This document shows positions 1 through 13,742 of a stretch of DNA of 13,742 nt, piece after piece; position 1 is the first letter of the stretch, and every line of letters begins with the position of its first letter. The notes under the pieces are model-generated. The model was not told where the DNA came from. It did not search any database and saw only the letters and a program-made list of their open reading frames with translations. This stretch comes from an uncultured cyanobacterium (GTDB taxonomy: Bacteria > Cyanobacteriota > Cyanobacteriia > Cyanobacteriales > Cyanobacteriaceae): NCBI GenBank assembly GCA_963749915.1, contig CAVVOP010000007.1:1-13742 (forward strand), read 5' to 3'. Position numbers and translations under genes: made by a program.

Positions 1-1665
1 CTGAATAAATCACAAAAAGATTCATTAGTAGTAATAAGCAGAAATTAAGATAAGTTCTTGTTGATTTTCACTTATCGTTTGATAATCTTTTATTATCAAT
101 CGCTTTTGACGATATTTTATTTCTAAAAATAGACACAAAAAATCAGCAGTATCTGCCGATACAGGTATGATAAATTCATCACTAAAAATATTAGTGATAT
201 AACTGTCATTGATGTTGATGGCAGTTTTGTCATTATTTTATTTAACCCGTATCTTCTTTTTCCTTCCCCTAATTTTCCTTCTACTCTATTTCTGACTTTT
301 TCATTTTCTCTTGTCTCTTTTTTCTCCTCTATACTTACATTTTTCTTCGGTCTTCCCAATGCAGGTCCATTCATTTTTATCCCTTTTTCCTTGCAATAGG
401 CTCTATTTGCCCTCGTTCTATATATCGCATCTACATGAATTGTAGCTGGATAATAACCCATTAATTTATAATATTTTTCTACTTGTTCTATTAGATGTGT
501 TGACTCATTGAAATTATCCCAACTTAATTTGTCTAAAAACACATAATTTTCATATACACTTATACTTATTTTTCCGCCAAATTCTACTGAACTCCCTGCT
601 TTTCCTCTAACTATTGGGCGTATATGTGGTTGATTTATACTCACTATTCTATTATCTATTCTGTTTTTTTCTTCTTCATACATTTCTTTTTGTTGTCTAT
701 ATACTTCGGATACTACTAATAATTTTTTATAGTCTTTTTTACCCAATTTTGACAAACTTATTCCCTGATTTATTAACTTTTCTATACTTTTTAAATTTTT
801 GCTCATATATCTCAATTGAAGTTTGATTGCTTCTGTTCTTTCTTCTTTTTTGGGCTTCTTTTTTTTCGACACTTTTAAATATTCTTTTCGGGCTATTTCT
901 CGATATGTTCTTGGCTTTTTACCTACCGTAATTCCTTCTCCCTCATGTAATTTATCTATGATTCTTTCTGTTTGCATTCTCCCTTGATTCAATAATCCTA
1001 AATCCGTTGGAAATGCTATATCTGCTGGGGTGCAACTCGCATCTAAAATTAGTTTTCCTTTATTTTTTATCTTTTCTTTTGAGTCATCTTCTTCTATTTC
1101 TTCTTTTTTTTAGTTCTTCTAATACTATCTTTTGATTTATTTTATCGATTATTTCACTATCTATTCTTTTTCTAAAATGCACCATCATTGATGAATCAAA
1201 AGGTATTTTATTGCTGAATTTTTTCAAGCCAATAAAGCATTGTAAATAGGGATTTTCTTGTATTTGTTCTACTGTTTCTCGGTCAGTTATTCTTGATTTT
1301 TGTTGAATTATTAATGCACCCAGTGCCATTCTAAATGGTTTGGCAGGTGCTCCTAATTTCTCACTAAAAATATTCGCATATTCTTCCTCCAATTCTTGCC
1401 AAGGAATCAGGTTCGCCATTACTATCCAACGGTTATTTTCATCCAACATTTGATTAGAAAGGATAAAATTTTTGGTATTGGTGGAGGATGATTGATTCTT
1501 GAGATACATTATACTTTTTGTTGAAATTTTAAATCTAAGTGTAGGTGCAAGTAATTACAAACGATTTGATTAGGGTTGCAACGATTATAACTCATTTTTC
1601 CTTGCACCTCCTTGGGGTTAAATTCCCCTTCACACAAAGGTTTTATCTTAATTCAGCAAACCCTA
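1..1665 (-). mobile_element. IS5-family insertion sequence; the downstream end runs a few bases off the window start
   Basis: 1651-1665 ATTCAGCAAACCCTA reads TAGGGTTTGCTGAAT on the - strand. The window begins CTGAATAA, the inner part of the matching inverted repeat. The transposase lies between them. Confidence 0.85.
123..1509 (-). pseudogene. IS5-family DDE transposase, about 461 aa, split by a +1 frameshift at an A8 run (1104-1111)
   Basis: ORF 1509-1084 encodes the N-terminal domain (GAPAKPFRMALGALIIQ, TDRETVEQIQENPYLQCFIG). The second frame is open from 1103 (EEIEEDD...KLILDASCTPADIAFPTDLGLLN) to the stop at 123 and contains HIRPIVRGKAG, VDAIYRTRANR and RNRVEGKLGEGKRRYGL. Confidence 0.9.
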
Positions 1666-1713
1666 AATAAATCTTCGCTAATTTTCGTTATGACCATAAT
1701 TGTTAGTTCTTGG

Positions 1714-2442
1714 TTAAATATCTTCGGGATTGACACCCAATTCTCTAAGTTTGGCCGCTAATTGTTCTGCTTTCTGTTTAGCTGATTGGGCTTCTTGTTT
1801 AGCTAATTGAGCTTCTTGTTTACTTTTTTCTGATAACTCAAGTTCGGTGGGTAAAACATCACCTTCTAAATTTGCCCAACGTAACCAACTTGTATTCACT
1901 CCTCGATAATCACCTTCCCAAAGCATTAAAGCTAATTTTAATTGTTGACTGATATAGCGATTGTCAGTGGTACGGCTTAAGGGTTGATAGATTCCATCAC
2001 GCAAAGTAAAACCTGCCCAATCATTTGGATTAAAAGGATCATACCAAAAATATTCTGGCACACGCATTCTATTTTGATAAATTAATTTTTTTTCTGTTTT
2101 GTCGATGTCAGCAGTGCTTTCTGATAGTAATTCTATTACTATATCTGGTGCTTTTCCTTCTTCCCAAACGACCCAAGATTTACGCTCGGTTTTTGGGACA
2201 TCTAACACCGCAAAAAAATCAGGTCCTTTAAAGTCTTGATTTTTAAGTTGACTAGCACTGAAATAAACAAACATATTTCCACCCGCATAACCATCTTCTC
2301 GCTTTTCTAACCAAGGATAAAGGGTTTCTAAAAGCAAATCCATTTGATGTTTATGTCTTTGGCTTTCCATCGGAATACCGTCTTCACTAGGTAATTCGTC
2401 TTGGGTTGGTAATCTTAAAACGGGTGGTGCTTGAGCAGCCAT
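1714..2442 (-). CDS. Uma2-family (DUF820, PD-(D/E)XK restriction-endonuclease fold) protein, 242 aa
   Basis: Motifs LPSEDGIPMES..H, GGNMFVYF, GPDFFAV, RKSWVVWEEGKAPDIVIELLS.ST...D, VPEYFWYDP, WLRW, and a coiled-coil tail ending LAAKLRELGVNPE. Confidence 0.93.
   Translation of the reverse strand: MAAQAPPVLRLPTQDELPSEDGIPMESQRHKHQMDLLLETLYPWLEKREDGYAGGNMFVYFSASQLKNQDFKGPDFFAVLDVPKTERKSWVVWEEGKAPDIVIELLSESTADIDKTEKKLIYQNRMRVPEYFWYDPFNPNDWAGFTLRDGIYQPLSRTTDNRYISQQLKLALMLWEGDYRGVNTSWLRWANLEGDVLPTELELSEKSKQEAQLAKQEAQSAKQKAEQLAAKLRELGVNPEDI
1775..1822 (-). repeat. 21-bp in-frame tandem repeat (about 2.3 units) encoding the heptads KQEAQLA/KQEAQSA
   Basis: + strand TGTTTAGCTGATTGGGCTTCT (1775-1795), TGTTTAGCTAATTGAGCTTCT (1796-1816), TGTTTA (1817-1822). 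The two full units match at 19/21. Confidence 0.85.
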
Positions 2443-2744
2443 AAATTTTGCTGAAATTATTAACTTAATTAAAATTGATCTAGTTTTATGTTATACTACT
2501 AACGGCTAACCGCTAGGAGCTTAACATTTCAAGATAGGTTCTATGATGCAACGCCAAAAAATGGATAATCGTATCGGGGCTATTTAGTATTTTATGCATA
2601 ACTAAAATGCACAACTGGTCAGGCATTAAGCAGCTATAAGTATAAAAACAAATATGAATAATGTAACTTGCCCAGGATGAAATGTCTCAAAAATATAGCG
2701 ATAAATGTTTTTTTATTTAACTCGACTGTTGTGATTTAGATTTT

Positions 2745-2752
2745 GCGATCGC
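2745..2752. repeat. HIP1 octamer GCGATCGC (other copies at 9823-9830 and 10683-10690)
   Basis: Exact matches to the cyanobacterial highly iterated palindrome. Confidence 0.9.
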
Positions 2753-2767
2753 TAAGTGTTTAACTAA

Positions 2768-4040
2768 TTAAGCAATTACCTCCTTTTGTTGTTTGATAAA
2801 TAAACGCGAAAAAACCTCAGAAGCCGATTGACCCTGTTGAAGTTGGTTATGAGCTAACAAAATAAGCTCTTCAATCAACTTCTGCCCCTGTTGACGACAG
2901 ACCTCCCCAATGGTTTTAATGGGGTGTGGGAATAGTTTCCCATTGCTTCGTATCGGTGACGTAGGTAAACTATCTAGATGTAGGAGTGAATAGGCTACGA
3001 AGACCAGACACCAATGTTTTTGAATGGCTTCGGCACTTCGCATTCGATATTCATCCAAACCTAGATGTCCTTTACTATCCTGATAGAAGGTTTCTATCGG
3101 CCAACGTTGTAGGTAAGTAGTGAGGATTTTCTTAGGGGACCAGTCAGTTCGGTTGCTGACCAAAACAGCATAAGTCCCAGTTAGTTCAGGATCTTCAAAA
3201 CTGATGACCAGTCGCACTTTTCCTAATCCGGGAATTCTCAGGCTTCGAGTAAAACACCAGTAAAATTTATCTGCCACCTTCACTCTTCGGTAGGCGTTTT
3301 TAGGAATCAGTGGGTACTAGCTCCTCAACTTTAATATGAGGAGCTTTTAAAGTCATCGGTTGTCCAAGCTCATCACGAAGTACAAAGCTGTTAACCTCCA
3401 GTTTACGATTCTTTTTAAGCAGACTGACCCAATCTAACTGATTCTCTCCTAGCGCAGCTACGATATCGGGCGCCAAATACCAACTGTCCATCAACACGGT
3501 GGTAAAGGGTAGTTTTCTACTCTTGGCTTGTTCAATTAACTCAATGGCTAAAGCTATCTTCGTCTGAAATTGACAGTGTAATTCCTGAAATTCGGGATCT
3601 TTAAGCAGAGTCTCATCTAAGAGCTTATGCAGTTTTTGTCGCTCCTTTTGCTTGTGGGGAATTTTCTGGTCAGGAAAATGCTTCTTAACAAATTTTGACC
3701 AACGTGTGACTTCTTCATAACGTCGATATATCCGCAGGTCAACGGGGAAGCGGACTGGTCCTGACAAATAGTGGCTGGTAACGAGATTATGAGCCAGAGG
3801 ATAATCGTTGTGGGAATGGTCGTAATGCCGGTCAACATACTCAAATAAACTGCCAACATGTTCACATAAAGTATCGTCCAATATCAGATAGGATTCTGGT
3901 GCCGTTTTACGATGGTTTGCTGTCTGATTTAAAAGATATTTGATTCTCTCATTGTTAACTTTTTTTTGACTCCACGGTGCTTGCGACAGAAATCGAGAAA
4001 GATTAGTTTTGTCCGCACTCTCTAAAATACACCGACTGAT
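2768..4040 (-). pseudogene. IS701-family transposase, 5'-truncated and frameshifted (+1 near 3312-3314)
   Basis: The frame of ORF 3881-3300 continues upstream to about 4040 (ISRCILESADKTNLSRFLSQAPWS...YLILDDT) with no start codon. It has LDDT and LMDSWY motifs. Removing one G at 3312-3314 gives LVPLIPKNAYRRVKV and joins ORF 3283-2768 (RWPIETFYQDSKGHLGLDEY). The element's downstream end may be near 2721, but this is uncertain. Confidence 0.88.
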
Positions 4041-4175
4041 TAAGTTTGCGTTTCGGTGTTTTTTATTAAAATTCGGATCAATATATCATAAATGGATTTA
4101 TAATAAAACATTCTTGGTGCTGATAAGTATAGCAATCCGGAAAAAAAAGATATCACTATAAGTTAGTTATTGACT

Positions 4176-5264
4176 ATGAAAAAAATTACTGTACTAACGA
4201 TTACTTACAATAAAGGAAAATACAATATTGCCTCTGTCGAAAGTATATTGAATCAAACCTATCAGGATTTCAATTATATTGTTGTTAATGATGGTTCAAA
4301 TGATAATACCAAGGAACTTCTTGATTCCATTCGTCATCCTAATTTAACTGTTATCCATCAAAAAAACCAAGGATTTACTAATACATTAGTAAATGTTGCC
4401 TCACACATAGATACTCCTTATGTTGCTATACATGGAGCTGGAGATATTTCTCATCCAGAGCGTTTAGAAAAACAACTAGATTTTTTAGAATCCGATCAAT
4501 CTCTTGGAGCGATTGGCTGTCATGTACGTAGATTATCTGATGAAGGAAACATACTTAATCACTCAAGAGTTCCTTTTTTAACAATTCACTCAGTTGAAGA
4601 TTTATTTGAAAAGTTAGGTAAAAGTAATTATTTTCGTCATGGTGAAGTTATGTTTCGCTACTCCATATATAAAAAAGCAGGAGGTTATCGTCAATTTTTT
4701 AAATATACTCAAGATTACGATCTCTGGTTGCGAATGCTTAGTTTTGCCAAATTAGCCAGAATAGATTCCTTTCTTTATGATCAGGTAAACATACCTCAAT
4801 CTTCTATAAACTGTGATTATAAAAAGGTAGAAATTCAGGCAACACTAAACGTTTTTGCTTGGCATCTAGCTCAGCAAAGATTAAAAAAACAGTTTGATGC
4901 CCTAGATTTAGAAGGCTTGGTAGCTTTTGAAAAGTTTAAGAATTCTCTTTCTCAACAAGACAAAATGTTTATTAGTAATGCAGTCATGATAACTGCTAAG
5001 CAAAGATATTATCAAACAGCAGATTATAAAATTCTTCTGGAAGGGGCTCAAAGAGCAATAGAATTAAATCCTGACAGTTATCAAGCTAAAAGAAATTTAA
5101 AATTGGCTTACTTAACTACGTTACTGGACTGGCTTGGTTTTAAAGAAATAGCTAAGCAGCTTAATAATAAAGAATCTAATTTAGTTAAAAATAAATTAGC
5201 CAAGTTACGTAAATTGCTCAAACCACATCTACTTGTTAAAAGTTTTTTAAACTCTACTCTTTAG
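4176..5264 (+). CDS. Family 2 (GT-A fold) glycosyltransferase, about 362 aa; ATG at 4176 preferred over TTG at 4170
   Basis: ITVLTITYN, SILNQTYQDF.YIVVNDGSND, NQG, HPERLEKQ and QDYDLWLR are GT2 hallmarks. The DxD position reads HGAGD. There is a helical C-terminal extension. Confidence 0.92.
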   Translation: MKKITVLTITYNKGKYNIASVESILNQTYQDFNYIVVNDGSNDNTKELLDSIRHPNLTVIHQKNQGFTNTLVNVASHIDTPYVAIHGAGDISHPERLEKQLDFLESDQSLGAIGCHVRRLSDEGNILNHSRVPFLTIHSVEDLFEKLGKSNYFRHGEVMFRYSIYKKAGGYRQFFKYTQDYDLWLRMLSFAKLARIDSFLYDQVNIPQSSINCDYKKVEIQATLNVFAWHLAQQRLKKQFDALDLEGLVAFEKFKNSLSQQDKMFISNAVMITAKQRYYQTADYKILLEGAQRAIELNPDSYQAKRNLKLAYLTTLLDWLGFKEIAKQLNNKESNLVKNKLAKLRKLLKPHLLVKSFLNSTL

Positions 5265-5690
5265 GGATTATAACTTGACCATGTCAGTGGACGCTGACCC
5301 TAACGTTTTCAGCGCAAGCACACTCTGCAAGCAGTTCGCCATCTGTTCAGTTGTTAATACAATAATAATATTTTTAATTGTGCTTTTAATTATTACAAAA
5401 GTACCAATATTAAAAACATACACCTGGAAGCTTCCCCCTCTTCCCTATCCTTGTCACCACAGGAATTTTTCAAAACCCTCGCAGTGTTGGCCCGGATAGT
5501 CGTAGCTGGGGAGGAAACTCGGACGTAAAAAACTATATACTCCCTCAATTGTCCGTAACTGTCTGAGTCAGATTATTTAAGTCAATTATAGTACCGGATT
5601 TGACTAAAAAATTCATTCCTAAAATACCATCAACTTTATTATAATGTGACTCATAAAAAAGAATAAATAAAATTGGAAAACTTAGAAATA

Positions 5691-6963
5691 ATGAGTTTTG
5701 TCTATCAAATTGAGGGAGGAAGAATCACTTCAAGGAGAAGTGAGATTATCAGGAGCCAAGAACGCTGTATTACCAGCAATCGCAGCTGCCTGCCTTGGGA
5801 ATGAACCCACTACGTTAAAAAATGTTCCAGTTAAGTTACATGATATTAAAATTCTGGTTGAGATTCTTAGGCATCTTGGTGCCAAGATTAAGATAGAGGA
5901 TTCTAATCTCTTCTGTTGCCGGGGAAATTTTCCTTCAGGGAATGTACCCCTGGAACTTGCCCAAAAAATCCGCTACTCACTATTGTTATTAGGGATGGCT
6001 GCTGCTGTTGGTGAAGAACTATTTCTTCCCTTACCAGGTGGATGTGCTATTGGTAAACGAAAGCATGATTTACACGTCCTTGGTTTACGTTCTCTTGGTC
6101 ATGAAATTATTGAAAATGATCAAGGAATTAGAATCAAGCCTCGACAAGGAAAAGGAGCAAAAATTAATTTCTATTTACCAACAACTTCTGGTACTGAAAA
6201 TATTATGCTGGCAGCAGCACTTGCTAATGGCGTGACTGAGATCCGTAATGCTAACACACGCCCAGAAGTTATGGAACTGGGACGCTTACTCGTGGCAATG
6301 GGAGCAGATGTAGATGTGCGTAACCGAGTTGTTAAAATTGCAGGGACAAATCATCTTCGAGGAGGGGCGAGCTTTTCTATTATGCCAGGATGGGATGAAG
6401 CCGTTACATTTTTAGCGGTGGCTGGTGTAACTAAAGGTGAAATTGTTATTCCTGGATTTGACTTACGCTACATTAAGTCTGATGTACATTACTTACGAGA
6501 GTCAGGCATTGAGATATTTGAATGGGGTGGCTCTGTTTATGCCAGTGGCAAGAATCCCCTTCAACCATTTGACCTTTTTACCGGTCCTTATCCTGCGATT
6601 AATTCAGATATGCAACCTATTTTTGCTGCCTTAGCACTTATGGCTTCTGGGGAAAGTACAATTACCGATATGCGTTTTACAGAGCGTTTTGGTTACACTG
6701 AAGAATTACGTCAGTTTGGAGCTAATATCGATGTATATGGTAACTGTGCGGTAATCAATGGTCATAGTGAGTTATATGGAGCTAAAAATGTTAAAGCTAC
6801 TGACTTACGTGGAGGTGCAGCAGTTGTTTTGTGTGCTTTAGCCGCTAATGGAGGAAGTACTATTAGTAATGTTTATCAGATCGAACGTGGTTATGAAGAA
6901 TTTGATCACAAACTTAGAAATCTTGGTGCCAAGATAACTCGTTTGGAGTCATCAAATGAATAG
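5691..6963 (+). CDS. murA: MurA-like enolpyruvyl transferase (divergent paralog); likely true start ATG 5691, with one extra base near 5720-5724
   Basis: SGAKNA, LPGGCAIGKR (catalytic Cys kept), GTENIMLAAALA.G.T.I.NA...PEV, SDMQP, ERF, ATDLRGGAA, RGYE. ATG 5691 gives MSFVYQIEGG, which fits a MurA N-terminus but is one base out of frame with SLQGEV. The only in-frame alternative covering this N-terminus is TTG 5698. Confidence 0.9.
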
Positions 6964-7894
6964 AAATCTAGATATAATTCTCCCTTCAGGTATTAACTGG
7001 CAAAAAAATGTACCTTTAGCTCCATTAACTACTTTACAGATTGGTGGTTTAGCAGAGTATTATGTTGTTCCCAATTCGGTAGATGAGTTAGTCAGTATTT
7101 ATGATCATGCCAATAAAATTGGTTTACCTATATATATATTAGGAAAAGGTTCTAATGTCTTGATTGATGATGCTGGAATTAAAGGTATTGTCTTGCAATT
7201 GGGTTCTGCCTTTAACTATCATTCGACCACAGAAAAAAAAATTACAGTTGGTGGTAGTCTTTCAATGCCTAAACTAGCTCGCATAGCTGTTGAAATTGGC
7301 ACAAGTGGATTTGAATGGATGATTGGTGTTCCGGGTTCTATCGGTGCAGGTGTTGCTATTAATGCGGGTGCTGGTCAGCAATGTATGTTGGATAACTTGT
7401 TATCTGCCACTCATATGAGTCCTAGTGGTGAAATAGTTACAGAGTTGGCTAGTGAACTAGAATTGCGTCACCGTGGCTCTAAATTACTCGATCGAGGATA
7501 TATTGTCTTGGAAGCAACTTTTAAACTGGATTTCAGCCAGCCAAAGCAGTCAGTAGTTGACCAAACACAAACTTTCGTCAAAAAGCGCCGCCAGAAGTTT
7601 CCTTTACGCTACCCTAACTGCGGTAGTGTGTTCAAGCGTCCGGGTGTAGGAAAAGGACCATATGCGGGATATTTAATTGAGTCAGTTGGCTTGAAAGGCT
7701 TACAAATTGGACAGGCACAAATTAGTGAAGTTCATGCTAACTTTATTATTAATCATGGAGGAGCATCCGCAAATGAGGTTAAAAACCTCATCTCAATTAT
7801 GGAGGAGAAAGTATTTTGTCAGCATAGAATAATGTTGGAGCGAGAGGTTCGCTATTTTCCAGAAGATGCTATCAACATGATTGAACGAAAATAA
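6956..7894 (+). CDS. murB: MurB-like FAD-dependent enolpyruvyl reductase (short, type II-sized), 312 aa; overlaps murA by 8 nt
   Basis: TTLQIGG.A, LGKGSNVLI.D.G, GVPGSIG....NAGA, NCGSVFK (catalytic Ser), HANFIIN, LEREV (catalytic Glu). ATG 6956 lies within the murA 3' end (ATGAATAG). Confidence 0.93.
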   Translation: MNRNLDIILPSGINWQKNVPLAPLTTLQIGGLAEYYVVPNSVDELVSIYDHANKIGLPIYILGKGSNVLIDDAGIKGIVLQLGSAFNYHSTTEKKITVGGSLSMPKLARIAVEIGTSGFEWMIGVPGSIGAGVAINAGAGQQCMLDNLLSATHMSPSGEIVTELASELELRHRGSKLLDRGYIVLEATFKLDFSQPKQSVVDQTQTFVKKRRQKFPLRYPNCGSVFKRPGVGKGPYAGYLIESVGLKGLQIGQAQISEVHANFIINHGGASANEVKNLISIMEEKVFCQHRIMLEREVRYFPEDAINMIERK

Positions 7895-8031: not shown

Positions 8032-8067
8032 GGGAGCATCCCATTTTTGGGGAGCATCCCATTTTTG
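8032..8067 (+). repeat. Exact 18-bp tandem duplication of the ISKra4 left-end tip
   Basis: GGGAGCATCCCATTTTTG at 8032-8049 and again at 8050-8067. Confidence 0.95.
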
Positions 8068-9348
8068 CAATTTTATTTGTGTTGCTTTCAGAAGCATAAA
8101 ATATTGTCTTATTTTAAAAACTTGATACTTTCTTCAGACCGAGAGTAATAATTGAATTATCCACATTTATTTTAAACCTACTTACTAACTATGATTTCTA
8201 CAATTAACATGACTCCTGAAGATCGGTTAGAGTTGGATAACTCTTTGAGAAAAGCTAGTGAGATTCTTTACCGTTATAGTAACGCTGACGATTGTGAGTC
8301 TTTTGCCCATTTGGAAAATCATGTACGTCATCAAATTTTAGAGTTTGTTAGTCCTCAACTCACCCTTTTTTTATCGAGAAGAAAACAAATTTACCACTAT
8401 CAGGAAGGGTCAGAACTCTTAAAAGTTGTTTAGGAACTATTTCTATTAGTCAAAAACAAGCACAATATTTGGGAATAGAACCATCAACTCGTTTGAGTCC
8501 GTTGCTAGAAAAATGTTGTCTTTTACTAAGTGCCAATGAGTCTTATCAAAATGCACAACAAGATTTGTCCATATTGACAGGAATTAAAGTCGGTCATTCG
8601 ACTTTCCATAGAAAAGTAAATCAGGTGGATTTGCCAGATGCAGAAATGAAACAAGGATTATCAGAAATAGCAGTAGATGGGGGAAAAGTACGATTGAGAA
8701 GTGAAGTCAAAGGAGAACCAAGCTATTGGCAAGACTACAAGACAGCAAGGTTACAAGGACTTTATTATGGAGCTTTTTTCCAATCAAATCTTTGTTTAAG
8801 TGATTGGATCAACAGTCAACCTTTGACATCACCAATATATTGTTTAGGAGATGGACATGATGGAGTTTGGAATATATTTGAAGAGATTGGAGAGGAAGAA
8901 AATCGAGTGGAAATTTTGGATTGGTATCATCTGAGAGAAAATCTGTACAAAATGGAGGCACAAAAGTCCATCTTGGAAAAATTAGAAGGACAGTTATGGG
9001 CAGGACAGGTATCAGAGGCAATTTCATTATTAGAAAGATTAGAACCAACAGGAGGAAAAAAAATGGTTAAATATCTTCAAAAGCATCGGTACCGAGTCAT
9101 CAATTACGAATATTGTCAAAGAGAAAAAATTTGTTCCATCGGTAGTGGAGCAGTAGAATCAGGAGTAAAACAAATCAGTCAAAGAATAAAACTAACAGGG
9201 GCACAGTGGAAAAAAGAGGATGTGAATAAAATATTGCAGTTGCGTTGTGCTTATCTGAATGGTAAATTTGCACTACTTGCTTAAGACTACTGATTATTTT
9301 AGTAGCATCGTATATGTTTTTCTATTTTTGCAAAAATGGGATGCTCCC
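8050..9348 (+). mobile_element. ISKra4-family insertion sequence, complete, with 21-bp perfect terminal inverted repeats
   Basis: GGGAGCATCCCATTTTTGCAA (8050-8070) and TTGCAAAAATGGGATGCTCCC (9328-9348). No flanking target-site duplication is visible. Confidence 0.93.
8191..9284 (+). CDS. ISKra4-family DDE transposase, probably expressed by a -1 programmed frameshift at T-TTT-TTA (8367-8373)
   Basis: ORF 8191-8433 (MTPED...LY...LE..VR.QILEFVSPQL) overlaps a -1 frame open from the T7 run (FFIEKKTN..SGRVRTLKSCLG...) to 9284. That frame contains VDGGKVRLR, CLGDGHDGVWN, EILDWYHLRENL and IGSGAVESGVKQI. Confidence 0.9.
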
Positions 9349-9669
9349 GCTGTTCTTTCGTGGGTCTTTCGGGCTCTTTGTGCTGTGGTTTCTTTCCGTT
9401 GTGTTTCTGGTTCTGCGTTGGCTTGTTCTGCGGCGTCTTGGTGGTTGCGTCCGGGGCGTTCTGGTGGTGGCTTCCGTTTGGTTGCCCGTTTTCCTTCCTT
9501 GGCTTTGGCTTCTTTGTTTGCTCGGCGCTGGGCTGGTACTTGTGGTTTCTCGGCGGTGGCGGTTCGTCCTTGTCCTGCTGTTGCGGGGTGCTGGGTTGTG
9601 TCCGTTCCCGTTGTTGTTCCTGCGTCCTCTGTGGTTCGTGGGTGGGGTGCTTGGGCTTCTCTTCCCTAG
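9349..9669 (+). CDS. Adenine-free hypothetical gene, 5'-truncated by ISKra4 (106 aa remain, almost only A/V/S/G/R/C/W/F/P/L)
   Basis: Frame GCT GTT CTT TCG TGG...CTT CCC TAG. The only adenines are 9538 (ACT, Thr) and 9668 (stop codon). An intrinsic terminator follows directly. No start codon is assignable because the IS end abuts it. Confidence 0.65.
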   Translation, partial: AVLSWVFRALCAVVSFRCVSGSALACSAASWWLRPGRSGGGFRLVARFPSLALASLFARRWAGTCGFSAVAVRPCPAVAGCWVVSVPVVVPASSVVRGWGAWASLP

Positions 9670-9676
9670 TGGCTCT

Positions 9677-9705
9677 GGTGGGGGTTGTTGCCCCTGCTTT
9701 TTTTT
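9677..9705 (+). terminator. Rho-independent terminator, itself adenine-free
   Basis: Stem GGTGGGGG (9677-9684), loop TTGTTG, stem CCCCTGCT (9691-9698) with three G-U pairs, then T8 (9698-9705). It starts 8 nt after the TAG. Confidence 0.8.
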
Positions 9706-9720
9706 GTCGTTAAACTTTAA

Positions 9721-10227: not shown

Positions 10228-11295
10228 ATGCTCGAGTTAACAGAAAATCTCCATCCTGATTCCCTCAAACTAGCTGTACCTATTCCTGTTACTATACATC
10301 CAGCGGCTGTTTATCTGGGGGGGTTGAAAAATAATTCCTATCGAACCATGAAATATTGTCTCGATACCATCGCTTCTATCTTGACTGATGACCATTGTGA
10401 TTCTCTGACTCTTGATTGGAGTAAGTTGCGTTATCATCATACTGCGGCACTACGTTCCGCTTTAATTGCTCAATTTAGTCCCATGACCGTTAATCTCATG
10501 TTATCGGCTTTACGCAGGGTCTTGTTAGAAGCTTATAAATTAGATTTAATGGAGTTGCCAGTTTATCAAAAAGTTATCGATTTACCTAATCTCACTGGTT
10601 CGGGTCAGGGCAAACGCACACATTTCTTTATATTTTAATAAGTGTTACAATTACGAATGAGATTTCAAAGTTTTCACAATTGGCGATCGCCTATTACTAA
10701 ATAAAAACTTTATTAATTACTTCAAGTAACATTAATTCCTGTGTTAAACTGTTTTTCTGAAACCATTATCTGGTAAGCTTTTAGTTGTTTGACTAATTTG
10801 TTAAGTTTTGTGTGCGTTTGCCCTGGGTTCGGGTGAACCAAAAGGAAGGGCTTTAAATGTCGATGAGATTCAAGCTATTATCGCTACTTGTGAAGGGAAT
10901 GAGCCGAAAAATGTTCGCGACCGAGCAATGATCGGGGTCTTACGGGGTGGTGGTTTACGGCGAAGCGAGTTAGTCAATTTAGAGTTAAAAGATTTGCATC
11001 TGAAAACAGAACAATTATTGATACGTCTTGCTAAAGGACAAAAAACTCGTCAGGTTTATTTACCCCAAGAGGCTGTGTTATTTCTGCAACAACGGCTGGA
11101 ATTACGGGGATTAGAAGATGGTGCTTTATTTTGTCGTATTCGTCGAGGGGGACATCTACAAATGGGAAAAATGCACCCGGATGCTATTTGGCGAATGCTC
11201 AAAAAACGTGCTCAAGGAGCGGGAATTCAATCCTGTAGTCCTCACGATTTGAGAAGAACTTTTTGTAGTGATTTACTCGATGCTGGTGTTGATAT
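10228..11295 (+). pseudogene. Tyrosine recombinase/integrase, interrupted by a MITE and cut before the catalytic Tyr by IS1634
   Basis: N-terminal core-binding region (HPAAVYL..L...S.RTM, W..LRY.HT.ALR, TVN.MLSALR.VL). After removing 10606-10834 the frame is continuous (PNLTGSG|EPKGRAL) through RDRAM, GLRRSEL, KGQK.R and PHDLRRTF. It stops matching at LLDAGVDI; the GH...Y box is absent. Confidence 0.92.
10606..10825. mobile_element. 220-bp non-autonomous MITE with ISAs1-like ends
   Basis: Perfect 17-bp terminal inverted repeats CAGGGCAAACGCACACA (10606-10622) and TGTGTGCGTTTGCCCTG (10809-10825). 9-bp target duplication GGTTCGGGT (10597-10605 and 10826-10834). AT-rich non-coding interior with one HIP1. 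The family call rests on recalled similarity of the CAGGGC ends. Confidence 0.93.
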
Positions 11296-12386
11296 CCTAC
11301 ATTCAGCAGGTTATTTAGGACAAAAAATAATATTTGCGGGAGGAAGCGCCAAGAAACTGCAAAATTAGATTCTGTCTATCGGAGAGTTTAATCTGAAACT
11401 TAAGATTGTTAAAAAAGACTAAATGAACAGAGAGAAAACACTGAAGAATCCAACGTAAGGTAGGACGAGCCGTTGGATTACCCTTTTGGTCAGGGAGAGA
11501 AGCATTGGCTTGTGCTAAAGCGAGTCTGAGTTGACGCTGCCCCAAAGTATAGACCATAAGAGCAAGAGTCATCAGCATAGCAAGAGCCATAATCCGCTTA
11601 GAATTTTTGAGAAAGACACTAGAAGCAAAGAACAAAGGATCTTTGAGAAAGCGAAAACCCCGTTCGGTAGGTTGCTGTCCTTTGTACTCCCGTAAGATAT
11701 CGCTATTCGCCCATTTTTCAGAATCAACAGAGTTAGTGGCAAGAATGAAACGCCCAGCTTGTTTTCCCATGGCAGCAACAGTGACTGGATTCTCAATTAA
11801 AACAGCTTGAATATGCCAAGAATTATGCGTGGGTTGCTGCCTCTGAATTAGGACGACCTCTTCGCGAATAATGAGGTTGAGATACAATTTGCAATTCATT
11901 GAGATTGTGGTATTTGAGAGTTTTCTCAAATTCGGTAACTGCACTGAGAGCATCCGCTTCACAGGCAAAGCTTTTATTCATTAAGCTTTTAAGCGCTTTC
12001 TCTTTCTCATTTAGTGCTTTCTCGATCTTTTTTGCTCCTGTTTTCAAATCTGCTTCCATGGGTTGAAGACTTTCAACTACTATCCATTGCTGCTTGATTC
12101 CTGCATAAGTGCTACAGACAGCACAAAAACGATAGCCTTTTTTGTCATATCGTTCGCTAAATTGTTCGGATGACAAGCTTTCAATTATTTCCTGTGCTGC
12201 TTTTAAGGTTGTGGGTACTCGGCTAATCCATTCAATGCTATTCCCAAATTCTTGCAGATTTGCTTCGCTATAAAATGCTGCATCCATTACATATAATTCT
12301 GGTTGCTCTCCTTCCCATTCTGCACGAAATGCCTTGATTACTTCTGGAAATGCGCTCTGGTCTGTTTTGTTCCCATTTCCTACATT
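11296..12386 (-). mobile_element. IS1634-family element, 3' part; inserted in the recombinase and itself interrupted by ISH3
   Basis: Terminus CCTACATTCAGCA at about 11296, 19 nt beyond the transposase stop and exactly where recombinase similarity ends. Confidence 0.85.
11315..12386 (-). pseudogene. IS1634-family transposase, C-terminal ~357 codons, with a +1 frameshift near 11840
   Basis: The frame is open from 12386 (NVGNGNKTDQ..F...YVMDAAFYS..NL, WISRVP, YAGIKQQWIVVES, FACEADA, RGRP). The second frame has AGRFILATN, YKGQQ.TERGFRFLKDPLFFASSVFLK and PTLRWILQCF. Deleting one base at 11840-11841 gives RPNSEQQPTHNSW. Confidence 0.9.
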
Positions 12387-13742
12387 CAGTAGATCGAAAG
12401 GAAAAAAAATAAAGAGATTATTGGGACATAAGTACTAAGTAAAGGGTTCTATTTTAGAGGATAATGAAGAAATAGTATAATTAAAATTTATATTTTTTAT
12501 CCCATGAAGCAAAAATATAATAATCAACAAGAAAAACTGGTTTTAACTGATCAAGAAACCTTAACACAAGTAGTAGATTGTCTCAATGAAAATATTTCTT
12601 TAAACGACCATGGTAAAAGGAAAAATAATGATTTATTTCTGGTTTTAGTAAGAGCCGCTTCGACCCAAAATACTATAGAAAATTCTTCTAAAGAATTAAA
12701 ATTAGCAACTTGTGGAAATAATATTCGATTTCATCTCAAAAAAATATCTGATTTCTTAAAATTAGAAAAAGAAATTAATACAGCATTAAAAAATCAAATT
12801 CCTTCTGGATTAAAAAATAATTGTTTAAATGTAGCAGTTGATTTTAATTTGATTGGTTATTATGGGGAACCCAATCAAGAAGAAAAACCTTATATTTGTA
12901 GAAGTCAAGCAAAAAATGGAACTTGTTCTTTTTATGGATATGCAACGATATATACGATTAAAAAAAATAAAAGAGTAACTTTAGGAATTAGAGCGATTCG
13001 AGTGAAAGAAACGAAGGTTTGTATCTTAACTCATTTGTTATCAGAATTATCGAGTTTAAATATAAAGATAGAAAAATTATATTTGGATAGAGAATTTTTC
13101 AGCATATCAATAATTAGATGGTTACAAGCATTAGAAATACCCTTCATTATTCCTGCTATTAGAAGAGGAAAAAAAGCAGGAATAAAACAATTTATGAGAG
13201 GAAGAAAAAGCTATGAGACTAATTATAAAATGTTAAAAAATGAAGAAGACTATGTAGATTGTCGCCTAGCAATAATTGTTAAATATAAAAAAGGAAAAAG
13301 AGGAAAAAAAGGAAGAGAATACTATATTTATGTAATAAATAACATTAAGATAAATATAGAGCAAATTCATTCTTGTTACCGAAAAAGATTTGGTATTGAA
13401 AGTAGTTATAGAATGAAAAATGTTTGTAGAATTAGAACGACAACAAAAAAACCAGTTTGGAGACTATTATTTGTAGGAATATCATTTTTATTAGTTAATA
13501 TATGGGTAAAAATATTATGGAAAAAAGTAAGTAAGCCAAGAAAAGGAGGAAGATTAGTCTATAATAAAATATTTTCTTTAAAACAAATGTTATCTTTTCT
13601 CAACCACACAATAGAAAGAATTTTTCAGGTAGAAACCAATGTTTATATACCAACAATATCAAACTAAAAATAATATAAGTAAATATTATATCAGTAGGTA
13701 AGACACAATGAAATCTAAAATCAGTAAAATTTTTATTTCGAT
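12387..13742 (+). mobile_element. ISH3-family insertion sequence; the right tip lies about 6 nt beyond the window
   Basis: Left end CAGTAGATCGAAAGGAAAAA at 12387, where the IS1634 frame breaks. The window ends TTTTTATTTCGAT, the inverse of ATCGAAA..AAAA. Confidence 0.85.
12504..13667 (+). CDS. ISH3-family (IS4-like DDE) transposase, intact, 387 aa
   Basis: VAVDFNLIGYYG, RSQAKNGTCSFYGYATIY, LYLDREFFS and YRKRFGIESSYR (YREK-like motif). The ORF is uninterrupted. Confidence 0.92.
   Translation: MKQKYNNQQEKLVLTDQETLTQVVDCLNENISLNDHGKRKNNDLFLVLVRAASTQNTIENSSKELKLATCGNNIRFHLKKISDFLKLEKEINTALKNQIPSGLKNNCLNVAVDFNLIGYYGEPNQEEKPYICRSQAKNGTCSFYGYATIYTIKKNKRVTLGIRAIRVKETKVCILTHLLSELSSLNIKIEKLYLDREFFSISIIRWLQALEIPFIIPAIRRGKKAGIKQFMRGRKSYETNYKMLKNEEDYVDCRLAIIVKYKKGKRGKKGREYYIYVINNIKINIEQIHSCYRKRFGIESSYRMKNVCRIRTTTKKPVWRLLFVGISFLLVNIWVKILWKKVSKPRKGGRLVYNKIFSLKQMLSFLNHTIERIFQVETNVYIPTISN

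Follow-up and report, generated by a model that had tools for sequence, protein, structure and literature searches.

An almost adenine-free gene from a cyanobacterial mobile region and the family to which it belongs

What is a stretch of 363 nucleotides that contains only two adenines, and what keeps adenine out of it? This question is raised by positions 9349 to 9711 of contig CAVVOP010000007.1 (assembly GCA_963749915.1) from an uncultured cyanobacterium of the Cyanobacteriaceae. The first 13742 nt of the contig were analysed as a whole and are referred to as the window. Following up an initial annotation of the bare sequence, we came to the view that the tract is very probably the body of a real, selected protein gene, which belongs to a two-part family, is cleared of adenine nucleotide by nucleotide, and has its setting in islands of mobile DNA. 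This judgement applies to the four statements jointly. The features of the window that are required for the argument are the following.

9349-9711, plus strand: A-free tract consisting of the coding region, the 3' untranslated region (UTR) and the terminator; 2 A in 363 nt; aligned with the other copies in the genome, all of which are A-poor
9385-9669, plus strand: protein-coding frame of 94 codons, GTG 9385 to TAG 9667-9669; predicted stand-alone domain A, based on the codon-position pattern, fusion alignments and profile matches
9680-9705, plus strand: terminator-like GC hairpin (GGGGG..CCCC, 9680-9694) and a run of eight T (9698-9705), read from the sequence; A-free
8032-9348, plus strand: insertion sequence (IS) of 1.3 kb, starting at approximately 8032; the tract follows directly after its right end

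The base counts of the tract are A=2 (positions 9538 and 9668), T=153, G=126 and C=82, whereas the full window contains 4252 adenines (30.9%). The A-free runs comprise 196 and 129 nt and are followed by a closing run of 43 nt (9668-9712); the longest A-free run elsewhere in the window has a length of 42 nt. The best self-shift identity of the tract (locus L040) is 0.39, compared to 0.6-0.96 in true repeats elsewhere. The IS has five other copies in the same genome at 95-100% identity, four of which end exactly at the position corresponding to 9348. The initial annotation was thus right about the two adenines in A-rich surroundings, a GC content of 55-60% (57% by count), the absence of a simple repeat, the IS end at 9348, and the TAG immediately preceding a terminator. 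It had further stated that the product lacks Lys, Asn, Asp, Glu, Gln, His, Tyr, Ile and Met. These absences stand; the list has to be extended by Thr, which is missing except for one residue that is due to the A at 9538. The A-poor tract is neither an artefact nor a repeat nor a hypermutated relic.

Coding evidence, copies and leader

All six frames are open from stop to stop within the tract. However, an A-free strand is necessarily open in all three plus-strand frames, and an open frame is therefore no evidence of coding. The evidence comes from related sequences. The genome of the window's organism (4.69 Mb, 34 contigs) contains four full copies at 86-100% identity and two fragments, and the four copies are the only A- or T-depleted 150-nt tracts of this genome. 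In an alignment of six tracts, the variable columns in the TAG frame amount to 35/102, 23/101 and 63/102 for the first, second and third codon position (chi2 34, p 4e-8). Comparison of the relatives L031 and L032 yielded a ratio of synonymous to non-synonymous codon differences of 21:7 in the TAG frame, and of 2:26 and 3:25 in the other frames. For the four copies of the same genome alone, the corresponding numbers of variable positions are 17/11/18, which is not significant; the synonymous share is still highest in the TAG frame. Indels within the frame are multiples of three, and indels of 4 and 1 nt fall after the stop. The stop codon and the subsequent terminator are conserved in all lineages; in other genera, the equivalent hairpin and T-run are kept with altered loops. 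The proposal that the TAG picks out the reading frame and that the proposed 106-aa frame shows conservation at the codon level is therefore supported, as synonymous differences dominate in this frame only.

An upstream ATG lies in frame in the copies C8a and C23, in the sister species G011, and in G018 and G033. It is out of frame in the copy C13 and absent in L031 and L032. In the window, GTG 9385 is the first in-frame start that remains after the insertion of the IS, and is presumably the start codon. In two of three runs, contigs from RNA libraries cover the tract, namely the A-free core from approximately 14 nt upstream to the terminator, and DNA carry-over is a possible source of these contigs. 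In the three runs, the middle of the leader described below (L022:8118-8340) is nearly uncovered and the contigs fail to join leader and tract, an observation that carries no evidential weight.

In the other three copies of the genome, the place of the IS is taken by a conserved leader, which lies upstream and is normal in composition. In the intact copies of the window's genus, the leader comprises approximately 215-250 nt and has a normal A content. Because the intact copies C8a, C13 and C23 have the leader at this position, the IS has displaced the native promoter and leader of the window gene and thus decapitated it. The insertion point of the IS coincides exactly with the last position ahead of the tract that contains an A. 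The leader was located as follows.

L022:8133-8346, L024:9599-9812, L023:8838-9024, L025:8296-8510, L026:8784-8996, L031:197-435 and L032:402-638: conserved structured leader

In the alignment of the leader, 92.6% of the cells are paired, compared to 79.9% in shuffles; 14 compensatory pairs occur, and none of 500 shuffles reached the observed value. A manual count gave 13 G.U and 6 A.C cells. By means of nhmmer, the leader was found only in the window's genus and in two metagenome contigs, apart from one marginal match; by sequence it is thus restricted to one genus. Rfam yielded no match at E<=1 for three loci. A leader-motif scan and a protein-pattern scan of a species genome collection, from which near relatives may be left out, gave 0 matches and 0 confirmed matches, respectively. 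In G010, the leader precedes an unrelated 106-aa open reading frame (ORF); for this reason, it looks like a portable expression leader.

More distant relatives were found as well. The sister species G011 has the same leader, followed by a tract of 588 nt that cannot be aligned by BLAST and is yet equally A-poor (9 A including the margins). Two metagenome contigs again show leader, tract, TAG and terminator. The metagenome scan had given three loci, of which L033 was rejected as spurious on account of its ordinary composition. A word search with the short ORF found seven metagenomic homologues, and a profile search with the corresponding protein domain, named domain A, gave 48 matches among 1.84 billion proteins. 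The lack of adenine outlives sequence similarity in this family.

A scan based on composition alone (150 consecutive non-A bases) was positive in 89 of 401 genomes of the phylum, and many of the hits are heptamer or Gly-rich repeats. The long, non-repetitive A-free tracts of other genera translate into a second, longer protein family, named domain B. The initial annotation had proposed such a scan for A-depleted windows and had expected that divergent homologues stay A-free. Both proved fruitful: the genome itself gave four mutual copies and other genera the second family, and the four copies, the sister species, the metagenome relatives and the domain B homologues stay A-free. Its mention of similar Ser/Val/Ala/Arg-rich hypothetical ORFs from cyanobacteria was likewise correct. 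The family has well over a hundred members in other cyanobacteria.

Two further kinds of A-free sequence were seen in these scans. A-free tandem repeats of at least 150 nt, with units of 6-8 nt or longer (for example CCCTGTT and TTCCTGTC), occur in many cyanobacterial genomes (L034, L035, L038, L044-L046, L053, L062). They are a separate low-complexity phenomenon that inflates composition-only scans. Gly-rich repeat genes with units of the GGTGCTGGTGCGGGC type (family f3) are A-free over 200-450 nt (L051, L055-L057, L059, L061, L063); their lack of adenine is probably a by-product of the Gly, Ala and Val codons in the repeats.

Exclusion of adenine and the two protein domains

Is it the protein or the nucleic acid that is constrained? 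The numbers of A-containing codons expected from the respective protein sequence and the codon usage of the host were 26.6, 30.1 and 56.5 for three genes; 0, 1 and 0 were observed (P 6e-16 to 1e-33). Strict members of the family contain no third-position A, and their residual adenines are located at codon positions 1 and 2 in codons for Asp, Gln, Ile and Met. Members that contain Glu spell it GAG; the numbers of adenines at codon positions 1, 2 and 3 are [1,11,1] and [3,10,0]. The stop codons of 23 family genes are TAG (19), TGA (3) and TAA (1), compared to TAA in 253 of 407 long ORFs of the host. The avoidance of TAA fits A-minimisation. The strong preference of TAG over TGA is left unexplained by it.

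The A-free zone is not confined to the coding region. It starts inside a small conserved hairpin, whose purine arm holds the last adenines, and extends past the stop codon through the GC hairpin to the end of the T-run. Among 286 ORFs of 18 island loci, a sense-strand A content of less than 11% was found in the A-free family alone; the median is 29.5%. As A is avoided at synonymous sites, with 27-57 A-containing codons expected and 0-1 seen, the constraint acts on the nucleic acid; from the third positions, the initial annotation had deduced a constraint on the nucleic acid or the codon set. Adenine is excluded nucleotide by nucleotide, and it is the DNA or the RNA as such that is constrained. 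Each domain has one branch in which the whole transcription unit has been cleared of sense-strand A; the cleared part begins a few codons downstream of the start and includes the complete terminator. Adenine survives only where it is irreplaceable, that is in an invariant Asp, a Gln, the start, and as one A in the stop codon. What remains is a protein alphabet of ten letters.

For domain B, the long form, 120 homologues were found, all of which are unnamed. A median of 2.5% of their residues fall outside the set F, L, S, C, W, P, R, V, A and G, and 97 of the 120 have less than 5%. Twenty-three of the 120 are fusions of approximately 300 aa. Because the N-terminal domains of these fusions align with the ORF of the window, the window gene is predicted to be the stand-alone domain A of a two-part family whose long form is domain B. 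The motifs of domain A are FR.VSGSAL, SWWLRPGRSGGGFRLVARF, VAVRP, WVVSVPV and GWGAW.SLP. An Asp is invariant in 69 aligned sequences.

The AlphaFold model of domain B has a predicted local distance difference test score (pLDDT) of 89.4 and a predicted template modelling score (pTM) of 0.82. Among 48161 chains, the structural matches were led by DprA (3uqz, Z 9.4, 2.6 A, 120 aligned residues; 4ljk, Z 9.1; 3maj, Z 8.8), and all top 10 matches are SLOG members. The three DprA structures, which stem from three species, superpose with the model at a root-mean-square deviation of 2.6-3.2 A over 120-123 residues. CARF and ThsA-SLOG Rossmannoid domains were among the weaker matches. When the profile of domain B was compared with the PDB, the two best matches were both DprA at marginal E values of 0.007 and 0.04. 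The profile pairs GFSGSR...GCA.GVD of domain B with VGSR...GLAKGID of DprA, and the motif pair GSR and G.A.G.D is present. Foldseek with domain B alone found nothing at E<=0.001. Taken together, domain B is predicted to be a DprA-like SLOG Rossmann protein. It does not possess the full DprA architecture: with 165-190 aa it corresponds to the Rossmann core only (matched range 106-269 of the 283 residues of the DprA chain), and the flanking N- and C-terminal accessory domains are absent.

In the model of a fusion, domain A forms a confident alpha-beta-beta-alpha-beta-beta unit with a block pLDDT of approximately 88-95. Two structural comparisons of the fusion model gave no fold match for domain A, as the lists were filled by domain B, and an Atlas search gave no usable match for it. 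Pfam scans matched neither domain A nor domain B to a family (E<=0.01 for the A-free form, E<=1 for the ordinary paralogue P0130). PHROGs had none for the A-free forms; P0130 gave one weak match (phrog_289, E 0.00079). The NCBIfam and PADLOC searches covered a reverse transcriptase (RT) and one integrase only.

Both domains have relatives with an ordinary alphabet. A profile search in 201 genomes of the order detected domain B in 23 genomes and in 17 of 96 genera. Of the 24 matches, 16 have an A content of at most 4%, two of 8-10%, and six of 25-31%. The ordinary forms keep the same motifs in normal spelling. They have 106 homologues, some of which are marked as plasmid-borne in the titles of their sources; one of the 106 carries a precomputed label of PF10686 (YspA, cpYpsA-related SLOG family). 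Relatives of domain A reach 49% of residues outside the reduced alphabet. Alphabet use is bimodal between the A-free and the ordinary branches. G461 and G420 are leaky, with many third-position adenines, and look like relaxing members. Short A-poor tracts of 150-170 nt adjoin an ordinary-alphabet SLOG gene in G149 (L096:1889-2058) and G209 (L098:2071-2218).

Genomic setting and comparison with known systems

In the vicinity of the loci, 286 ORFs from 18 loci were surveyed, 263 of which were submitted to Pfam; the remaining 23 belong to L099. The A-free genes live in islands of plasmids or integrative elements. The gene ardA lies 0.6-1.6 kb downstream of the A-free gene on the same strand in G188, G054 and G461, and is also on the same strand in G149 (approximately 9 kb away) and G209 (16-17 kb away). 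Further island neighbours are ssb, single-strand annealing proteins, with members of the DdrB, Rad52 and ERF types, Sipho_Gp157, a T4 coupling-protein-like ATPase, ParA, toxin-antitoxin modules and integrases. PemK/MazF toxin genes are located upstream in 2 of the 18 loci. The comparison of the 263 ORFs with Pfam did not reveal any relaxase family.

In the window and at its copies, the setting is as follows. A recombinase gene is located near the 3' end of the tract in C13, C23 and G011 and at a distance of approximately 1.1 kb in the window, and none was found at C8a. ParA is near the copies C8a and C23. In the genome of the window, neither a SLOG partner (queries: profile A3 and P0130) nor ardA was found. 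The proposed setting in a mobile element close to integrase, oriT or relaxase genes therefore holds with respect to the integrases and, in other genera, the ardA islands, whereas no oriT or relaxase was identified in proximity. Genes for nucleases recur beside A-free genes, Endonuclease_NS directly downstream and the SNase family 1-3 kb upstream.

10808-11368, plus strand: tyrosine recombinase gene of the phage-integrase family (PF00589, E 1e-26), approximately 1.1 kb downstream of the tract
L096:13792-14649, L097:3094-3921 and L049:2226-3119: Endonuclease_NS genes beside A-free genes
L092:5545-6093, L093:6598-7164, L102:2828-3382 and L105:7687-8247: SNase genes beside A-free genes

The remainder of the window contains transposase fragments (DDE_Tnp_1_2, DUF772, DDE_Tnp_1, DDE_5) and a Uma2-family gene at 123-3881 and 12504-13667. 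A GT2-murA-murB block (4170-7894) is flanked by transposase fragments; in this contig, housekeeping genes are surrounded by a patchwork of mobile DNA.

How does the family relate to what is known? With the DprA/SLOG superfamily (YpsA, LOG, ThsA-SLOG, ShosA; PF10686), it shares the predicted Rossmann-like fold of domain B and the motif pair GSR...G.A.G.D. It differs from DprA in that domain B is a Rossmann domain only, is written in approximately ten amino acids and scores below the Pfam cut-offs, while domain A is a different small domain. Mobile elements are known to avoid motifs: restriction sites are avoided, and messages without ACA resist MazF. In these cases a motif of 3-8 nt is removed, and the protein remains essentially free. 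The likeness is a nucleic-acid constraint above coding that renders a gene invisible to a sequence-specific attack; the difference is that the A-free family loses a whole base from one strand and with it half of the amino-acid alphabet. Eukaryotic signal-sequence coding regions without adenine comprise tens of nucleotides and are tied to nuclear export. Such regions of secretory mRNAs, the subject of PMC3635865 and PMC2100147, resemble the present genes in being A-depleted coding stretches. Here, in contrast, a whole bacterial gene and its terminator are A-free. To our knowledge, diversity-generating retroelements (DGRs) are the only known system that singles out adenine. A DGR is present in the genome of the window, and a copy of the leader stands beside a decayed one. 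However, no pair of template and variable repeat exists at the tract, no RT is near the family loci elsewhere (263 ORFs compared with Pfam), and the genes are under selection and not randomised.

The closest parallel in gene company is the leading region of conjugative plasmids (ardA, ssb, psiB; Frpo), for which passages of PMC11541004 describe same-strand arrays; the A-free loci share this company (ardA, ssb, toxin-antitoxin pairs and nucleases), the arrays and a predicted protein for handling single-stranded DNA (ssDNA). The difference is that no oriT, relaxase or Frpo-like promoter was identified at the A-free loci. The word 'DprA' has 0 occurrences in the main text of PMC11541004. In the abstract of PMC13478746, leading regions are characterised by GC-richness and codon adaptation, and neither this abstract nor the passages of PMC11541004 report an exclusion of a single base. 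A description of bacterial genes lacking one base was not found in the Creative Commons PMC literature or in bioRxiv preprints. The near-total exclusion of one base from whole genes, conserved across many genera, is undescribed as far as these sources go.

The exclusion of A implies a selective force on DNA or RNA that is strong enough to override most protein chemistry. A Rossmann domain predicted at a pLDDT of 89 essentially dispenses with Lys, Glu, Asn, Gln, His, Thr, Ile, Met and Tyr and has a single invariant Asp. As homologues with an ordinary alphabet allow for a direct comparison, the family is a natural test case for minimal protein alphabets. Given the company of ardA and ssb, a principle of defence or counter-defence could come to light once it is understood against what the lack of the base gives protection, and A-free genes offer a design rule for attack-resistant expression cassettes.

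Possible causes of the exclusion of adenine

Why is adenine excluded? The explanation that we prefer, with a probability of roughly 0.35, is that these genes are attack-proof cassettes for early expression whose template is a T-free single strand. The cassette would be expressible before any other protection in an element that has newly entered a cell. The protected molecule would be the template strand, which would enter as ssDNA. A template without T would offer no thymidine for ADP-ribosylation of the DarT type, would not fold onto itself, and would be bound poorly by SSB or RecA. Immediate transcription would then supply a DprA-like protein that may coat or repair the rest of the incoming strand. 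Only the gene of the protector itself would need intrinsic immunity, which would explain the ordinary composition of the neighbouring ardA and ssb genes.

As background, the chemistry of DarT is the ADP-ribosylation of thymidine, and both SSB and RecA have base preferences. Several data are consistent with this proposal. The predicted folding energies of T-free templates as ssDNA are -6 to -21 kcal/mol per 330 nt, compared to -29 +/- 8 for 60 host templates, and six of seven tract templates fold more weakly than all 60 host templates. A-free RNA is predicted to fold in the ordinary range. DarT is common in the order, with 45 positive genomes out of 201, compared to 0 of 14 control genomes. According to passages of PMC11541004, genes of leading regions are carried on the T-strand, and their transcription starts from ssDNA by means of single-strand promoters.

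On the other hand, a number of points weigh against a T-free single-strand template as the cause. The low folding energy of the ssDNA is a trivial consequence of composition. Carriers of A-free genes show no association with DarT (4/23 versus 45/201 overall). DarT enzymes are motif-specific, and the removal of every T therefore seems excessive. In G164, an ordinary promoter (TTGCTT-17-TATAAT, read by eye) directly precedes the A-free zone, which suits expression from double-stranded DNA. The excess of G.U cells in the leader (13 vs 6) mildly favours folding of the sense RNA over folding of the template strand. No relaxase or oriT was identified at the loci, so the terms 'leading region' and 'T-strand' are based on gene content only. 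The copies in the genome of the window stand beside integrases in IS-riddled DNA, with neither ardA nor a SLOG partner. Finally, expression is predicted from the sequence, and the contigs from RNA libraries are compatible with DNA carry-over.

A more specific version of the T-free template proposal assumes attack-proof antidote genes: the SLOG protein and its small partner would guard newly entered ssDNA from a base-directed defence, such as thymidine ADP-ribosylation of the DarT type, and their own unit would lack the attacked base, which would allow the antidote to be produced while the element is still unprotected. We consider this version unlikely. If true, it would amount to a new principle of counter-defence and, in addition, to a natural experiment in which a Rossmann fold is written in ten amino acids.

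The protected molecule could also be the transcript. Endoribonucleases such as the adenosine-specific Csx1/Csm6-type enzymes of type III CRISPR systems, MazF-type ACA cutters and the A/U-preferring RNase E need A in single-stranded RNA. An A-free mRNA would not be cut by such enzymes and would survive and be translated during a defence response or a toxin burst, or would simply be long-lived following a brief pulse of transcription. This fits the extent of the A-free zone, which is the transcript body up to the end of the terminator, and the position of the last adenines of the 5' edge, which are base-paired in one arm of the small conserved hairpin mentioned above. The fold of the leader, as stated, mildly favours the sense strand, and the RNA-library contigs of two runs span the A-free core alone, as a trimmed stable species would. 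The PemK/MazF genes upstream at 2 of the 18 loci and a per-adenine cost pattern that agrees with one cut site per A point in the same direction. However, the leader of the intact copies in the window's genus (approximately 215-250 nt) has an ordinary A content, and 5' UTRs that are short but contain A are found elsewhere. No A-specific RNase is linked to the loci, and immunity of the transcript alone leaves unexplained why just one island family is protected. Protection of the transcript and the T-free template are the leading candidates; we regard the former as slightly less likely than the latter, and each of them as less likely than not.

Alternatively, the family might be immune to itself. 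The SLOG/domain A system would act on adenine or thymine in nucleic acids or nucleotides, for instance through binding, cleavage or modification, and its own message or template would contain no substrate. Proteins with a SLOG fold comprise enzymes that process nucleotides as well as sensors of adenine-containing signals, and CARF and ThsA-SLOG are among the weaker structural matches of domain B. Moreover, this is the only A-free family in the islands, and both partners are A-free. Yet no catalytic motif was identified, the closest relatives by structure and profile are DprA proteins, which bind ssDNA non-specifically, and the other genes of the element would stay unspared. As paralogues with an ordinary alphabet and the same motifs exist, the activity itself does not force the lack of adenine. 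Self-immunity is therefore improbable.

Avoidance of certain tRNAs is very improbable. It would mean that the codons skip the targets of anticodon nucleases (Lys, Glu, Gln, Tyr, His, Asn, Asp) as well as U34-dependent NNA codons. Indeed, the alphabet misses exactly the amino acids with a second-position A, and NNA codons are absent. What it does not account for are the third positions, the A-free 3' UTR and terminator, and the choice of stop codons with a single A; furthermore, the first-position-A residues Ile, Met and Thr are avoided too, for which no nuclease reason is known.

A mutational origin has an even smaller chance. The initial annotation had named adenine-directed hypermutation, and a DGR-type RT beside a copy of the leader raised the idea of an adenine ratchet, in which such an enzyme, which misreads A only, repeatedly re-copies the transcript onto its own gene and A is lost for good. 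The genome of the window does have a canonical DGR on contig C1 and a decayed one on C8, the latter followed after approximately 45 nt by a copy of the leader module, and an Avd-like gene lies 7 kb from the tract of G018. Nevertheless, an RT was found in 0 of 263 neighbour ORFs from the 18 loci (the 23 ORFs of L099 lie outside this Pfam set). G011, which has the cleanest tract, gave 0 matches to the C8 RT, and its RTs are far from the tract. No A-containing template counterpart exists in the genome of the window. A ratchet would not keep the invariant Asp, the Glu spelled GAG or the choice between TAG and TGA, and purifying selection is evident. The ratchet was rejected on the basis of the missing nearby RTs, the missing template and the selection pattern, and with it the suggested hypermutation.

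Evasion of restriction was another suggestion of the initial annotation, and we give it next to no credence. A strand without A contains no palindromic site with A/T and no site that depends on adenine methylation, which is true by construction, and the ardA neighbours show that restriction is a relevant threat. The palindromes consisting of G and C only, which remain possible, are below the dinucleotide-shuffle expectation in 18 of 19 tracts. However, their ratio of observed to expected is 0.71 for the tracts, compared to 0.73 for the flanks and 0.50 for the chromosome of the host, and thus corresponds to background; because the same depletion occurs in flanks and chromosome, restriction avoidance was rejected. 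Guarding 0.4-1.2 kb would in any case leave the rest of the element cuttable. According to the abstract of PMC13478746, depletion of motifs is not a consistent feature of leading regions in enterobacterial plasmids.

It is equally hard to believe that the tract is a non-coding RNA or DNA element with by-product open frames, or a gene on the minus strand. In favour of this, A-free sequence is open in all three plus frames and, being T-free on the other strand, in all three minus frames; moreover, C13 has the upstream ATG in a different frame, and the A-free form matches no Pfam or PHROG family. However, the codon-position pattern, the homologous fusions, the confident folds and the homologues with an ordinary alphabet speak for a protein. 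The minus-strand gene was rejected because a start codon is impossible in T-free DNA and the only frame with the same wobble positions is closed at CTAG/CTAA in every lineage.

The DGRs of the genome were characterised as well. The canonical DGR (locus L029) extends over C1:22931-24826. Its RT occupies approximately 23.6-24.7 kb and is closely followed downstream by the template repeat (24709-24826), whereas the variable repeat (22931-23049) is part of the gene upstream. Every mismatch within the repeat is an A in the template. The motif IGNLTSQ is a signature of DGR RTs, and PDB entry 8ub7 is presumably the Bordetella DGR RT. The decayed DGR (C8:887795-889226; L018, L028) has lost the C-terminus of its RT and most of the template repeat and carries copies of an IS or a miniature inverted-repeat transposable element (MITE) at both ends. 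The copy of the leader module that begins approximately 45 nt after it is truncated. A separate RT pseudogene with three stops is located at C23:437-1752 (L030). The MITE-like repeat of approximately 300 bp at C8:887491-887794 has more than 15 copies in the genome at 83-99% identity.

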